From positions 6,057-70,056 of the IMG/VR virus record IMGVR_UViG_3300028832_000135: a stretch of 64,000 nucleotides of DNA. One strand, written 5' to 3'. This document shows, piece by piece, positions 3,262 through 37,371 of this stretch (position 1 is its first letter; each line of letters begins with the position of its first letter). The position numbers and the translations under genes are program-made. Below the pieces are notes generated by a model. The model was not told where the DNA came from. It worked only from the letters and a program-made list of their open reading frames with translations, and made no database searches. The DNA is from a virus. Taxonomy: Duplodnaviria > Caudoviricetes.

Positions 3262-3753
3262 TTACTTCCAAATGGCTTTGGAGTAATCTATATAGTCTAT
3301 TCTAATTGAAATACTATATTTAGCAAGGGCGGGGGTCACGGCTCTATCAACACCGTTCATATTAGGTTGGTCTGTGACCACTAACATATCGTCTATCACA
3401 CAATTACTTCCAAAATTGGGATAATTGCGTGCCTCTGACTGTTCCGTTACCCAATCTGCCACTTGTTGCACCTTAAAGGTGTTATCAAGATTTTCGGAAA
3501 CAGAAGTGCTCTCGTTGTTTATGGTACGGGTTACCACCGCATTATATGTTACCGACTGGTAATCAATGAGTGTAAATGTGTATCTTCTCTTTACGCTACC
3601 GTCAATGTACGGCTCATCTACGCTCACATCATTTGCAATGGTTACTACTTGCTTATTGTCCGACTTGGCCTCACCGAAGTTATAAAACAGAGGATTATTC
3701 TTTATATACGGACAAGTAAGGAGATAGTCAACAACGGCTTTATTTTTATCCAT
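3262..3753 (-). CDS. Tail terminator / minor capsid-3-like protein
   Basis: Position upstream of tail tube; YIDGSVKRRYTFTL and AKYSISIRIDY pattern. Confidence 0.65.
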   Translation of the reverse strand: MDKNKAVVDYLLTCPYIKNNPLFYNFGEAKSDNKQVVTIANDVSVDEPYIDGSVKRRYTFTLIDYQSVTYNAVVTRTINNESTSVSENLDNTFKVQQVADWVTEQSEARNYPNFGSNCVIDDMLVVTDQPNMNGVDRAVTPALAKYSISIRIDYIDYSKAIWK

Positions 3754-4554: not shown

Positions 4555-4999
4555 CGGGATATAACCCCCTATAAAGCAATTTTCGTCCTAACTCATTGGT
4601 AACGCCTTGCAGGTAACGTTGAATTGTCTGTCCGATTTCCTGGGACAAAAGTGATGTAGCATCACGGGCAGCGAGAGAATTGTAACTGACTGATACTCCG
4701 TCATTGGATTGACTCATAATAGACTTCAAAATATCTCCTGAAGATGACACCTCTGAGTTATCCACAGAAATACCAAAAGCCGATAAGCGTTCTTGAATAA
4801 ACTTAATTAAGTAAACTTCGCAACGCTTAACGGCATCGGGTATATTCGTATTATTATGAAGTCGGTTGAAAGTGTACCAATCAATGTAACTTTCGGCCTC
4901 ATAAGCATAGTAATTGAACTCGGCTTCACTCAATGTGCCTCCGACCATCTGATATTCTGCAAATGTTAAATACCTCGGAGTCATATCCATTGATGTCAC
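4547..4999 (-). CDS. Head-tail connector (adaptor)
   Basis: YLTFAEYQ...AESYIDWYTFNR...SQSNDGVSVSY...LLYRG pattern. Confidence 0.75.
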   Translation of the reverse strand: MTSMDMTPRYLTFAEYQMVGGTLSEAEFNYYAYEAESYIDWYTFNRLHNNTNIPDAVKRCEVYLIKFIQERLSAFGISVDNSEVSSSGDILKSIMSQSNDGVSVSYNSLAARDATSLLSQEIGQTIQRYLQGVTNELGRKLLYRGLYPGE

Positions 5000-5378: not shown

Positions 5379-6683
5379 TCAAGAACCGTAGCCGAGTGTA
5401 ATGATTTCGCCCAACTGATAATCCTTGATGATTGTGTCTGTGCCGTTTGTAGCAACAACACGGAGAACCTGCTCGCCCTTGTCTGTAATCTTGAATACAG
5501 AGTCAAGGTCATCAAGATGTCCGATGAGTTCCTGCATACCTGCACCCTGTGTGGGGAGAAGACCAACCTTAACAGATGTGTACTGTGCCCAGTTTGCAGA
5601 CTCGAATGTGATTGCTACGAAGTTACCTGTACCCCAAACATCTGTGATTGCGTTAGAGCCATTGAGCCACTTGGAAGTACCTGTGATTGCGTCCTTACCT
5701 ACGGCAACACCGCTCTGAATGTCAGATACATTTACACCGTAAACCGTACCCTCTGTGAGAGCCTTAACAACGGGTGCAGAGAAAGCGTTACCAGAAGTAG
5801 CGTTGAACTGAATTGCACCAGCCTTGTTGTTAAGTACGAATACATCTTCAAAAGACTCCTCGTAGTAAATGTACTTACCCTCGGAACCAGCAGAAGGCTC
5901 ATCAAGTCTTGAGAATGTGTAGGAGACAGGTGTGAGAACTGCGATGGGGTGAACAAGGAACATATTGATTTGGAGAGCGTTGTCTGCGGGTGCCCAACCG
6001 TTTGTGAAATCATAGAGTGTTCTCATAAGAGGTGCGGGTACACCGATAATCTCAACCTCATCAAGTCTTGAAACGATACGGTTAATTCTCTTCTCACCGC
6101 CGTCAACCTCGATGTAACGAGAAATCTTCTCTGCGTTCTTGAGGATTGTCTTTACTTCGTGTGTAACATAGAGAATACGACCTGTTACCGGGACTCTTGC
6201 GTTATCCATATTGAGCATCAACTTGTCGAATACGGAAAGAACATTAGCCTCGGAAAGAACTGTTGTATCTGCTGTGTTGCCAAGAGCAACCCAATCGTTG
6301 TAAATCTTTGAAACACAGTAAGCGTCCATTTCAGGGAACTTCTGCTCTTCATTCATTACACGGGTAATGTTAGCGATTGTTGTGACCATATTGGTCTGGT
6401 CAACGTCCATAGGGTGAACAAGTGTTGACCACTTTCTCTCGTTTGTGAGAGTCTTTGTCTCCCAAGAGTTCGTGTAATTTCTCTGTGCAGTTGTGATTGT
6501 ATCTCTGTCTGCATCAACACGACCTGTTGTCTTGATAGACGGAATTTCGATTGTCTTTGCGTTTACCCAACGATATGTTCTGTTGTTAGGTGTTCTGTAA
6601 AGAGCACCGAAGTTAAGAACATAAGGGAAAGCCTGTGACAATGCTCTTGAATACTGCTTTGCGTAGTTAAGTGCCTGTGCCAT
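5379..6683 (-). CDS. Major capsid protein with ~135-aa C-terminal extension
   Basis: NYAKQYSRAL...TIEIPSI...WETKTLTNERKWSTLVHPMDVDQTN...QINMFLVHP pattern of A118-like MCP; follows scaffold. Confidence 0.9.
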   Translation of the reverse strand: MAQALNYAKQYSRALSQAFPYVLNFGALYRTPNNRTYRWVNAKTIEIPSIKTTGRVDADRDTITTAQRNYTNSWETKTLTNERKWSTLVHPMDVDQTNMVTTIANITRVMNEEQKFPEMDAYCVSKIYNDWVALGNTADTTVLSEANVLSVFDKLMLNMDNARVPVTGRILYVTHEVKTILKNAEKISRYIEVDGGEKRINRIVSRLDEVEIIGVPAPLMRTLYDFTNGWAPADNALQINMFLVHPIAVLTPVSYTFSRLDEPSAGSEGKYIYYEESFEDVFVLNNKAGAIQFNATSGNAFSAPVVKALTEGTVYGVNVSDIQSGVAVGKDAITGTSKWLNGSNAITDVWGTGNFVAITFESANWAQYTSVKVGLLPTQGAGMQELIGHLDDLDSVFKITDKGEQVLRVVATNGTDTIIKDYQLGEIITLGYGS

Positions 6684-26138: not shown

Positions 26139-26214
26139 TGGCGGGGGTAGTGGGAGTCGAACCCACGCAATCCGGGAGTCAAAGACCCGTGCCTTACCGC
26201 TTGGCTATACCCCA
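26139..26214 (-). tRNA. trnQ: tRNA-Gln(UUG), CCA encoded
   Basis: Cloverleaf TGGGGTATAGCCAAGCGGTAAGGC...CTTTGAC...GTGGGTTCGACTCCCAC...GCCA. Confidence 0.92.
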
Positions 26215-35270: not shown

Positions 35271-35651
35271 TTAAAATAATCTGTTCTTCTTACATTCGTT
35301 TACAAACATATTCTCAAAGATTGCTTGTAATACATCTACTACGATTGAATTACCCGCCTGCTTATACTTCTGCGTGTCTGACACCGTGAGTTTATCGTAA
35401 TCTTCATCTCTGACACCCATAAGCCTAAAGCACTCTTTTGGTGTTAATTTCCTTATACGGTAATGTTGTTTCGCCATTGCTATATCTCCTTTCGTACCTC
35501 GTTCCGGGGCAAGTACCTTCGTGTGAGTCATTCCGCCTCCGCAGGTGTGTAGTGTCGGGGCAATCCCGTCCGCACCGTAAACCCGGTTTGCCATATCAAA
35601 GGTATGGTCTTCCGAGTTATCCATTTGTCCTACCATATGCACATCAATCAT
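35271..35651 (-). CDS. C5 MTase last module: one TRD-like repeat plus motifs IX-X
   Basis: NRVYGADGIAPTLHT; RKLTPKECFRLMG; YKQAGNSIVV. Confidence 0.85.
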   Translation of the reverse strand: MIDVHMVGQMDNSEDHTFDMANRVYGADGIAPTLHTCGGGMTHTKVLAPERGTKGDIAMAKQHYRIRKLTPKECFRLMGVRDEDYDKLTVSDTQKYKQAGNSIVVDVLQAIFENMFVNECKKNRLF

Positions 35652-35799
35652 CTTCTTTTACCACCACGCATTGTTGACTCGCTGCACTTGTTGTCTTAAG
35701 TGTCGGTGCTATGCCTCTTATATCCCAAACACAACCGCCAAAACTTGCACCAAACTCATCTCCATAAACATTGCCAAGCAAAATTGGACTATCGCTCAT
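35644..35799 (-). CDS. TRD-like module G (51 aa)
   Basis: Manually translated MSDSPILLGNVYG...VWDIRGIAPTLKT. Confidence 0.7.
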   Translation of the reverse strand: MSDSPILLGNVYGDEFGASFGGCVWDIRGIAPTLKTTSAASQQCVVVKEDD

Positions 35800-35944
35800 C
35801 TTTCACCACGACCTTTACTATTGCTAAACCGTGCACGGTATCTAATGTCGGACTCAAACCCTCTGACGAATACACCACATTAGATTGATGCTTTCCGTCA
35901 CCAATATGTCCAAGAATAATCTGTGTGTTTACTTCTTCTGACAT
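35789..35944 (-). CDS. TRD-like module F (51 aa)
   Basis: MSEEVNTQIILGHI...HQSNVVYSSEGLSPTLDT; SD GGAG. Confidence 0.7.
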   Translation of the reverse strand: MSEEVNTQIILGHIGDGKHQSNVVYSSEGLSPTLDTVHGLAIVKVVVKDER

Positions 35945-36081
35945 TTATGTATCTCCAAAACATATGAGCATTGAGTTGCCCCACAGTTTGCTTGAAGTGC
36001 CGGGACAATATCTGCCACCAGGTGTTTCCGTGTAGCCGTTCCGTCTCCCGCCCGGTGCGAAAAGTTATTGGGTATTATCAT
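35929..36081 (-). CDS. TRD-like module E (50 aa)
   Basis: MIIPNNFSHRAG...DIVPALQANCG; SD GGAG. Confidence 0.6.
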   Translation of the reverse strand: MIIPNNFSHRAGDGTATRKHLVADIVPALQANCGATQCSYVLEIHKCQKK

Positions 36082-36232
36082 CTTCATCTCCAACCGCATA
36101 TACCTCTATCAATTTCTTACCATTAGTGAACGCACTAAAACCGCAAGTGGGAGTTATTGTTCCTATTACATTTTGGTCTTCGCAAACCCTATGGTTATAA
36201 TCGTCATATATCACTAACTTTATTAGGGTCAC
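36065..36232 (-). CDS. TRD-like module D (55 aa, GTG start)
   Basis: VIYDDYN...IGTITPTCG...NGKKLIE. Confidence 0.6.
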   Translation of the reverse strand: MTLIKLVIYDDYNHRVCEDQNVIGTITPTCGFSAFTNGKKLIEVYAVGDEDDNTQ

Positions 36233-36374
36233 GCTCAACCTCGCTAACTACTATATATGGTATGTGTGTTGCACCTGCCCGTATTCCGGGAGAAACACCG
36301 TCATCACCAAATACCGAACCGTCATACCCGTCGTGAAAACCATACATATTACCGAAAAAGTGTATCTGTTCCAT
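36204..36374 (-). CDS. TRD-like module C (56 aa)
   Basis: MEQIHFFGNMYG...GSVFGDDGVSPGIRAG. Confidence 0.6.
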   Translation of the reverse strand: MEQIHFFGNMYGFHDGYDGSVFGDDGVSPGIRAGATHIPYIVVSEVERDPNKVSDI

Positions 36375-36525
36375 TTTCACTTACCAAGATATAGCCATTG
36401 CACCAACCGTGTGTTCCTGCACATAAGGAAATATAAATCCCTGATGTATCGTACACAACCCCACATTGGCTACCCTCATTCGATATTTGCCCTATTCTCT
36501 TCACTTCGGTCTTCGAGAACTCCAT
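36349..36525 (-). CDS. TRD-like module B (58 aa)
   Basis: VKRIGQI...SQCGVVYDTSGIYISLCAGTHG...GYI. Confidence 0.7.
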   Translation of the reverse strand: MEFSKTEVKRIGQISNEGSQCGVVYDTSGIYISLCAGTHGWCNGYILVSENGTDTLFR

Positions 36526-36622
36526 TGAACCCATAGTTATTAAGTCCTTTATAGTCTCTTGCCATAAGGGTCGTTGCAACCTTTATCGGCTCAATGCTTG
36601 CTTTTCTGTCTTTACCACTCAT
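36476..36622 (-). CDS. TRD-like module A (48 aa)
   Basis: VATTLMARDYKG motif. Confidence 0.6.
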   Translation of the reverse strand: MSGKDRKASIEPIKVATTLMARDYKGLNNYGFNGVLEDRSEENRANIE

Positions 36623-36660
36623 ACCTACCATTAAGATTGGTGTTTGGTATGAGTGGTTTA

Positions 36661-37371
36661 TCAGTTTGGGAGTTGTCCACGCATCTGCAATTCCTGTATT
36701 AACGCTCTTGCTTTCGGTGAGTCAATATAATATTTTTGATTGACGCTCTCTTCAAGAACATCTTTAAGTCGTATGTCTAATGGTCTGCCTTTAGGGAATG
36801 AAAATACCTTATGCTCTGACTTAAGAATACTTACCATAAAGCATCTTTCTCTGTTCTGTGGCACTCCAAAGTCCTTTGCATTGAGTATCTTATACTGGCT
36901 CTCATAGCCTTTCTTCGCCAAAAATGTAGTCCACTCTCCGAATAACTGTGCATTGTCCTTACTAACTACTTGCGGTACATTCTCCATTAAGAGATATTGA
37001 GGTAACTCCTCACACTCATTAAGAAGTCGCTCTACTTCCCAAAGCAAACTTGACCTTGTTCCGCTATCTCTCTGCATACCTGCTTGTTTGCCCGCCAACG
37101 ATAAATCGGTACAAGGAAATGAGTATGTCAAAAGATACTTGTACTTATCTGTTTCCGTGATATTCAAATCTGATGCGTGAATGTCACGAATATCGCTAAC
37201 TTCAAAATTCGTTCCGTGGATTTCGTTGTAAGATTGCATTGCATACTTATCGAACTCGCATACAAACCAATGCTCAAACGGAATACCAGAATACCTCAAG
37301 GCTAATGCTTGTGAGCCTTACTAATAGCCTGCAAAGAGTTCTATCAGTCGGATAGTTCTTTTGTCAGACAT
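36661..37371 (-). pseudogene. C5 cytosine MTase catalytic module (motifs I-VIII) interrupted by in-frame TAG TAA
   Basis: MSDKRTIRLIELFAGY**GSQALAL...SFPCTDLS...MENV...QNRERCF. Confidence 0.8.

Follow-up and report, generated by a model that had tools for sequence, protein, structure and literature searches.

A phage C5 methyltransferase locus divided into catalytic, target recognition and motif IX-X reading frames

To our knowledge, the textbook C5 methyltransferase is a single chain, two two-chain enzymes being the known exceptions, and the way in which one core uses several target recognition domains (TRDs) in the multispecific phage enzymes has never been resolved structurally. The multispecific C5 enzymes of Bacillus temperate phages, which include M.SPRI, M.Phi3TI, M.Rho11sI and M.H2I from the work of the Trautner group, carry tandem TRDs of ~40-50 aa between motifs VIII and IX. 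Here we describe a C5 methyltransferase locus (hereafter the kit) in 64,000 nt of DNA from a virus of the Caudoviricetes (Duplodnaviria), positions 6,057 to 70,056 of IMG/VR record IMGVR_UViG_3300028832_000135; this whole stretch is referred to below as the window. The kit occupies positions 37371-35271 on the minus strand and lies in ten reading-frame pieces, namely a 5' stub, a catalytic module, seven small open reading frames (mini-ORFs) and a C-terminal ORF. Like the Bacillus phage enzymes, it has tandem, independent TRDs that can be added or removed as modules, and its single-chain relatives share its TRD types. The Bacillus phage enzymes, however, hold all of their TRDs in one chain, whereas the TRDs of the kit each have their own frame, start and stop. 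We judge that, taken as a whole, the kit is best explained as a multispecific C5 methyltransferase encoded as separate parts in one operon, with a probability of roughly 0.5.

Natural two-chain C5 enzymes are represented by M.AquI and M.EcoHK31I, and fragments of monomeric C5 enzymes are able to complement one another when the protein is cut in the variable region (PMC3404938). M.AquI (Karreman and de Waard 1990, described in PMC3404938) resembles the kit in that motifs I-VIII and IX-X are on separate chains, encoded by adjacent genes and split in the variable region. Its two chains serve a single specificity, though, whereas the kit has up to ten ORFs, eight TRD modules (six of them free) and a candidate frameshift link, and no close sequence relationship between the two was detectable beyond the C5 family motifs. 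In M.EcoHK31I (alpha/beta; Lee, Kam and Shaw 1995, described in PMC3404938) a small chain likewise supplies a missing element, but it is encoded inside the large gene in a different frame, provides motif IX and not a TRD, and serves one specificity. Two-chain enzymes, fragment complementation and multispecific phage enzymes are thus already known; what is new here is the candidate frameshift site, the selection measurements, the motif I lesions and a conserved internal start for motifs IX-X. Our literature search, whose coverage was incomplete and which is no proof of novelty, found no account of TRD mini-cistrons, of a frameshift site in a C5 methyltransferase or of repeat-switched phage TRDs.

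Layout, spread and selection of the divided locus

Eight TRD-like modules lie in tandem between motif VIII and motif IX (Table 1). Seven of these are mini-ORFs of 51-76 aa with one TRD-like core apiece, and the eighth is within the C-terminal ORF. The catalytic module matches Pfam family PF00145 with an E value of 9.9e-43 (profile positions 22-204) and the C-terminal ORF with 1.1e-13 (positions 232-322). Membership in this family is also evident from PC (motif IV), ENV (motif VI) and QNRER (motif VIII), which are intact and stand in alignment columns that are invariant with the window copy included, and from RKLTPKEC and GNS (motifs IX and X), which are invariant in the C-terminal alignment. 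Motifs I-VIII and IX-X are therefore on separate, adjacent ORFs, split in the variable region. Reading of the ORFs and the PF00145 matches confirmed the layout given by a first-pass annotation of this DNA, which had described a catalytic module, seven TRD-like mini-ORFs and a motif IX-X module. Its statement that neighbouring frames overlap by 8-50 nt needs correction, since the frames at 36631 and 36579 overlap by ~50-100 nt, depending on the start used.

The locus is interrupted nine times by a frame change or a stop and so, like that of every member of its clade, does not encode a single polypeptide; the frame steps at successive junctions are -1, +1, +1, +1, +1, -1, +1 and +1. We considered and rejected an alternative genetic code, as the pieces end in TGA, TAA and TAG, their frames differ, and the neighbouring genes are intact under translation table 11. 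Because all three stop codons are in use, no recoding or alternative code mends the gene. A suppressor tRNA was also rejected: the only tRNA in the window is a tRNA-Gln (anticodon TTG, i.e., Gln-UUG; 26139-26214), which is no suppressor.

The divided layout is not an assembly error. A 2219-nt region is 100% identical in a separate JGI metagenome contig (L085; labels such as L084, L003 and P0156 denote the relative loci that were compared with the window), and the identical C-terminal protein, accompanied by the same ladder of small ORFs, is found on Logan and ENA contigs from other datasets, so that the sequence is reproduced in independent assemblies. Among IMG/VR relatives with both motif IV and motif IX, 54 of 57 are split and 3 are single ORFs. 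The clade of the window itself, defined by the synteny of PolA, methyltransferase and clamp genes, consists entirely of multi-ORF kits (L084, L086, L087, L003, L195, L197, L198, L200, L201 and L202), and homologues of the kit are thus not in general single ORFs, the outcome that would have spoken for simple breakage. The simplest kit, in L198 (3001-4436; also in L199), has two ORFs of 234 aa each, one with motifs I-VIII and the other with TRDs and motifs IX-X. A search for relatives with the clamp protein as query returned a single distant locus, and a scan of IMG/VR with the 15-mer of the junction gave 27 matches, only one of them in a methyltransferase (the L003 contig); the additional lineages were gathered through protein look-ups.

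More distant relatives show the same pieces. The catalytic ORF ends at an identical LPN in 15 protein clusters, down to 68% identity, and at least 7955 short C-terminal fragments (69-221 aa) were present among the matches listed in a protein search. A profile of mini-ORF 7 matched 860 clusters among 1.84 billion representatives, 236 of them at an E value of 1e-10 or better; among the best 149 of the 860, 47 are stand-alone ORFs of 100 aa or less, and all 47 have a Met start a few residues before the TRD core. Such counts of short ORFs are suggestive only, because gene callers report ORFs in dead genes too. Further matches to this profile include single-chain enzymes, 300-1000 aa long, in which the module is one of several TRDs. 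Six of the seven mini-ORF module types, or their TRD class, also occur in-frame within single-chain multi-TRD enzymes or in longer ORFs of relatives, and most kit module types are found in tandem within the single-chain L009, L033, L122 and P0156. The seventh (36099-35929) was seen only among members of the clade of this phage; in L195 it follows another TRD in-frame, fused to it in one ORF.

These single-chain multi-TRD relatives (L006, L009, L013, L122 and P0156) could be taken to mean that the mini-ORFs are decaying remnants of such a gene, broken by indels, with their regularity coming from the repeat structure. A frameshifted gene would by chance show overlaps of 8-50 nt, and the catalytic module of this copy is indeed broken in motif I. 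Selection on the pieces argues otherwise. We estimated ratios of nonsynonymous to synonymous substitution (dN/dS) by the Nei-Gojobori method for the window versus L084 and in comparisons with L086. Against L084, the catalytic module gave a dN/dS of 0.09, the C-terminal ORF 0.16 and five mini-ORFs 0.12-0.24 (pooled, 0.16 at a dS of 0.96). Comparisons with L086 gave 0.08-0.20 overall and 0.11-0.20 for mini-ORFs. Mini-ORF values (0.11-0.24, with dS of ~1) are therefore far from neutral and comparable to those of the catalytic (0.09) and C-terminal (0.08-0.16) modules, and none of the modules contains an internal stop codon. Because the three lineages compared already share the breaks, the pieces have stayed open and constrained while separate. 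The junction ATGs with their Shine-Dalgarno (SD) sequences are conserved as well, as are the stop after LPN in the 15 clusters and the internal SD before motif IX. The first-pass view that the breaks fall regularly at module boundaries and did not arise by random decay was thus borne out by homologues, assemblies and dN/dS, and decay, already largely refuted as regards the architecture, is very unlikely.

Three points weigh against reading these ratios as selection on the separate pieces. The dS is near saturation, a module offers only ~50 codons, and the cassettes move, so that some of the selection could date from an in-frame stay in another genome. We are nevertheless highly confident that the architecture is real and has been kept by selection.

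The movement of cassettes is evident among close relatives, in which their order and number vary without loss of frames. Relative to the window, L084 has modules 2 and 3 swapped and contains extra TRDs; L084 and L086 share one cassette that the window lacks. Module 4 (IYDDYN) is free in the window and in-frame inside the C-terminal ORF of L084, and modules 3 and 5, separate in the window, are fused in one ORF of L195. This variation in order, number and fusion state, by which a module that stands alone in one genome can be joined in-frame elsewhere (module 4 in L084; modules 3 and 5 in L195), would suit a silent store of TRD cassettes that are recombined into an expressed fusion with the catalytic or C-terminal ORF and selected only there. 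Such a reservoir had been one of the options of the first-pass annotation, and the sequence speaks weakly against it. No long DNA repeats flank or separate the cassettes, and the best direct repeat, 17 nt at 82% identity, is not the conserved flanking DNA that frequent gene conversion would use; there is no recombinase or invertible-repeat signature, and silent cassettes would have no need of conserved ATG and SD signals. Given the lack of long flanking repeats, shuffling looks like occasional illegitimate or inter-phage recombination and not like a dedicated conversion system. We regard a silent store as improbable.

The first junction and the starts of later pieces

Programmed -1 frameshifting is a familiar means of making two isoforms from one gene, as in dnaX (tau/gamma), the phage tail chaperones (G/GT) and the IS1 and IS3 transposases. 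The junction between the catalytic ORF and the first TRD resembles such sites in its heptamer, short spacer, stem-loop and nearby 0-frame stop, and may like them fix the ratio of a short to an extended product. The three sense codons that close the catalytic ORF, CTC CCA AAC (CTCCCAAAC), are identical in 11 lineages even though dS is ~1 or more. The codon before them varies (CAA, ACA, GAA, CAG or ACC), and so does the stop that follows, which is TGA, TAA or displaced by one codon (L202). In the 0 frame, C_CCA_AAC is a canonical X_XXY_YYZ heptamer for a -1 shift. A hairpin begins 5-9 nt past the heptamer in every lineage, with stems of at least five unrelated sequences. Folded individually, the junction hairpins range across lineages from -13 to -23.5 kcal/mol (z -1.0 to -6.3); a joint fold of five aligned junctions found no covariation, the differing loop sizes having misaligned the hairpins.

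In 10 of the 11 lineages (the exception is L003), no stop interrupts the -1 frame for 56-110 codons past the heptamer, and the TRD core lies near codon 33; in the window the open stretch is 64 codons long. The first ATG in this frame of the window, at 36631, has no SD (+2.0), and in L116 and L201 no ATG precedes the TRD. Judging from the alignment, the stretch before the first ATG appears to change like coding sequence. The first junction thus combines a canonical heptamer, downstream structure and an open -1 frame, the features expected of a -1 frameshift site, and we think it fairly probable that ribosomes shift here. Contrary to the first-pass annotation, this junction has no convincing start codon of its own and resembles a frameshift site. 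In L198, where the same heptamer, stop and hairpin separate the two ORFs, the -1 frame has no stop until the second ORF ends, and one shift there would give a complete single-chain enzyme.

Two observations count against a frameshift at this position. The 3' arm of the hairpin holds the ATG or SD of the next ORF, most clearly in L198, and could gate reinitiation instead of stimulating a shift; and the hairpin of L201 is weak. The placement of these signals speaks for coupled reinitiation, in which the hairpin would mask the start codon or SD in front of the first TRD until a terminating ribosome melts it and a separate TRD peptide is made. One or more downstream ATGs or an SD are in the hairpin loop or 3' arm in the window, L084, L087, L195, L198 and L200, the hairpin region of L198 has a good SD (-9.7) together with an ATG, and the remaining junctions of the kit all resemble coupled starts. 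Reinitiation would leave unexplained, however, the lack of synonymous change in CTCCCAAAC across 11 lineages whose flanking codons and stop vary, and the absence of stops in the -1 frame between the heptamer and the first ATG. It also fits poorly with L116 and L201, where the TRD core has no ATG before it, and with the window, where the ATG at 36631 has no SD. We consider it unlikely, though a good deal less so than decay or a silent store.

From the second mini-ORF on, the signals are of another kind. From 36579 onward, an ATG lies within 2 codons of the point where the frame opens in five of the seven frames, an excess with P of ~2.5e-3 against the window's own frames of 45-90 codons and ~3e-5 when calculated from trinucleotide frequency. 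SD duplexes at the last five starts range from -6.3 to -8.8 kcal/mol; a value of -6 kcal/mol is reached by 20% of all ATGs versus 67% of long genes. The ATG is embedded in codons for the acidic end of the preceding module (V-V-K-E-D), and GTG GTG codons serve at the same time as the SD. Both L084 and L086 retain this ATG with its GGTGGTG or GGAGA context. The ATG of mini-ORF 6 comes right after an in-frame TAA. The recurring VV.K(E/D)D/ATGA junction that had been noted earlier is found at the last junctions and does not extend to the others.

The C-terminal ORF contains a further start that would give a chain with motifs IX and X and without a TRD. Its SD duplex is -11.8 kcal/mol in the window, -11.3 in L084, -11.8 in L086 and -7.7 in L087, and L003 has a 69-aa IX-X ORF whose true start is the equivalent ATG. 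The internal SD and ATG are therefore conserved in five lineages, and the TRD-less chain is probably made. Such a chain would require a TRD from another polypeptide.

Recoding at every junction, by +1 or -1 shifts or by hops, would in principle join the pieces into one or a few long single-chain isoforms. The joined frames would restore a canonical multispecific enzyme, and one junction does have good frameshift signals. The +1 junctions, by contrast, have no slippery motif, the P-site codons before the stops (GAA, CGG, ATA, CAA, CGA and GAT) are unable to re-pair in the +1 frame, and one junction of L084 is an in-frame TAA with no shift at all. Seven low-efficiency events in series would also leave almost no full-length product. 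Serial recoding is therefore the least probable of the explanations considered here, and the programmed frameshifting first suggested for the fragmented frames can be retained for the first junction only, with its conserved heptamer, stop and hairpin, the others having no slippery site. For junctions past the first, trans-assembly of specificity subunits appears to be the best remaining reading.

Relatives from the human gut handle the same junctions differently. These phages of ~58 kb, 57-58% identical in the catalytic module, have repeat tracts at the same TRD junctions, including (GACA)3-16, (AGCAG)n, (AGAGC)n, (GAACA)9, (ACAG)12, (AG)n and G8-11. Repeat density is 1.36 per kb inside the gene versus 0.075 per kb outside (18x the flanks). 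Tract copy number differs in 128 of 151 pairs whose upstream flanks are at least 97% identical; in one example, contigs with identical flanks have 13 and 10 copies. The loci with tracts include L014, L138, L012, L021 and about 50 more, in which the tracts lie ~630-650 nt after the start of the N-module match (for example, L014:4640-4694; L012:4615-4660 and 4794-4842). From their sequences these tracts look like phase-variable TRD switches that behave as contingency loci. They recall methyltransferases that vary in phase through simple-sequence repeats, such as the Mod phasevarions of Haemophilus and Neisseria and Type I and IIG enzymes (PMC7383803, PMC4889913), but the known cases are bacterial adenine methyltransferases that are switched whole and not TRD by TRD, and the window and its closest relatives have no such tracts. 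Between 35000 and 37600 of the window we found no simple-sequence tract save a hexamer repeat in the PolA tail, and L084 had none, so the clade of the window seems to use fixed signals instead.

In L003 and L087, (AG)5-6 tracts occur just past the frameshift hairpin and again at a later junction (L003:4678-4689 and 4971-4982; L087:3125-3134 and 3307-3318). The (AG)6 of L003 puts the first TRD out of the -1 frame and the (AG)5 of L087 leaves it in phase, and such a tract may be a repeat switch layered on the frameshift site.

Motif I disruptions and genomic setting

The copy of the kit in the window has a lesion that the first-pass annotation did not weigh and that makes the kit of this genome probably inactive. 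Motif I reads ELFAGY, TAG TAA, GSQ, so that no contiguous FxGxG is present; the 6 nt TAGTAA are cleanly inserted between the codons for Tyr and Gly and are absent in L084, L003 and L004. The stub before the insertion begins with a strong SD (duplex of -14.0 kcal/mol). The next start after it is a TTG eight codons downstream, without an SD, and the genome contains no other PF00145 module, all matches coming from the kit locus. With two stops in the S-adenosylmethionine-binding motif and no other C5 catalytic module, this copy has most likely lost its activity recently, the kit being otherwise intact. From the sequence, it is very probable that the window copy is catalytically dead.

Similar, independent disruptions are found in relatives. 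L201 (940-1010) has a 7-nt TAGTTAT insertion at the same site as the window, with nearly identical upstream DNA, and L200 (2900-2960), L202 (2230-2300) and L203 (40-110) have in common a different 5-nt insertion, 8 nt upstream of the site in the window and L201. In L201 and L202 an HNH endonuclease gene (PF13392) is immediately upstream of the methyltransferase start, and no group I intron or other Rfam family was found near the motif I disruptions of L200, L201 and L202. As a lead from four lineages, this pattern points to a homing endonuclease that targets the DNA of motif I, with the indels as possible scars or immunity changes.

The record containing the locus is a virus genome of 70,056 bp that is rated complete in IMG/VR. 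The genes of the region are all encoded on the minus strand: PolA (39761-37392) comes first, followed by the methyltransferase locus and a clamp-like gene (35258-34188), and the two neighbours of the kit are long, intact ORFs. No convincing promoter or terminator was found inside the methyltransferase locus. Around the kits of relatives, GIY-YIG endonuclease genes interrupt or follow PolA just upstream (L195:1-2988; L087:560-2024), with PolA of L195 called as two pieces around the endonuclease gene. A PF01555 N6/N4 amino-methyltransferase adjoins the C5 kit, on one side or the other, in several relatives (L087:4181-5491; L200:2163-2891; L003:5911-7452; L004:2561-3940); the window has none at a kit-adjacent position.

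Table 1. Pieces and candidate signals of the methyltransferase locus, in window coordinates.
Feature	Position	Strand	Evidence or remarks
5' stub of catalytic gene	37321..37371	-	ATG, 16 codons; ends ELFAGY (first half of motif I), then TAG TAA
TAGTAA insertion, 6 nt, two in-frame stops inside motif I	37318..37323	-	Alignment with L084, L003 and L004
Catalytic module, second half of motif I to motif VIII	36661..37317	-	PF00145; ends GQLPN + TGA
Candidate -1 slippery heptamer C_CCA_AAC, stop right after	36664..36670	-	CTCCCAAAC invariant in 11 lineages
Hairpin, 6 nt 3' of heptamer	36614..36657	-	Folding; -22 to -23 kcal/mol, z -4.7 to -5.1
TRD module 1 (TLMARDYKG type)	36476..36669 (mini-ORF from ATG: 36631-36476)	-	-1 frame of catalytic ORF; dN/dS 0.13
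TRD mini-ORF 2 (GSQCG...AGTHG type)	36349..36579	-	Likely ATG 36534 or 36525, weak SD; dN/dS 0.24
TRD mini-ORF 3 (GNMYG...SPGIRAG type)	36204..36380	-	dN/dS 0.12
TRD mini-ORF 4 (IYDDYN type)	36065..36238	-	GTG 36232 with SD -7.6
TRD mini-ORF 5 (VPALQAN type)	35929..36099	-	SD -6.7 to -7.2; dN/dS 0.18
TRD mini-ORF 6 (HQSN.VY..GLSPTL type)	35789..35944	-	GGAGA 7 nt 5' of ATG; dN/dS 0.12-0.15
TRD mini-ORF 7 (GNVYG...VWD..GIAPTL type)	35644..35799	-	SD -8.8; dN/dS 0.20
C-terminal ORF, 126 aa: TRD module 8 and motifs IX, X	35271..35651	-	PF00145; dN/dS 0.10-0.16
Putative internal start for a 68-aa motif IX-X subunit without TRD	35271..35477	-	AAAGGAG, then ATG, six codons before motif IX

Assembly from separate parts and its implications

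The explanation that we favor would work as follows. The kit would be one operon, co-transcribed with the replication genes. Its catalytic subunit (motifs I-VIII) would end in the -1 site formed by C_CCA_AAC, the stop, a 6-nt spacer and the hairpin; most ribosomes would stop there, and a fraction would shift into the first TRD to give a catalytic-TRD fusion. Six more TRD mini-cistrons would follow, each starting within the last codons of the preceding one, and from mini-ORF 4 onward, where SD-like sequences are present, their translation is probably coupled by termination and reinitiation. The C-terminal subunit would come in two forms, one with a TRD and motifs IX-X (126 aa) and one with motifs IX-X alone (68 aa), the latter through the internal ribosome-binding site. 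By analogy with M.AquI and M.EcoHK31I, two-chain enzymes that have been solved, the active enzyme may be a non-covalent assembly in which a catalytic subunit and an IX-X subunit take up a single TRD. Eight specificities could in this way share one core, and gain, loss or reordering of whole TRD cassettes would leave the rest unharmed.

Several points weigh against this explanation. We know of no experimental precedent among C5 enzymes for a free TRD of 50 aa that joins two other chains. Mini-ORFs 1-3 have no convincing ribosome-binding sites, and their expression is for that reason less certain. The catalytic module is broken in the window copy and has 13 private amino-acid changes versus 4 in L084, a hint of relaxed constraint. 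For free TRD peptides acting in trans, taken by itself, we put the chances a little below even.

A more comprehensive proposal, to which we hold only tentatively, would also take in the frameshift, the retuning of specificity and the motif I scars. The 50-60-aa TRD peptides would be exchangeable specificity subunits, each forming a three-component enzyme with the catalytic and IX-X chains, and the TRD would play the role that HsdS has in Type I systems. The -1 shift would set the ratio of bare to TRD-fused catalytic chains, turnover of cassettes would retune the restriction sites that are protected without the enzyme ever being broken, and the motif I indels would be homing-endonuclease scars or immunity changes.

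The candidate frameshift site would, as far as we could find, be the first in a DNA methyltransferase gene. An architecture of one cistron per TRD that has been selected implies that a TRD can dock on the core without covalent attachment, and if this is true, non-covalent docking would explain how these enzymes achieve multispecificity. It would also offer phages an easy way to swap anti-restriction specificities, and programmable cytosine methylation would gain a natural scaffold of the plug-in type. As regards annotation, phage metagenomes hold thousands of short "DNA_methylase" fragments and unannotated ORFs of 50-90 aa, which may be functional parts and not broken genes.

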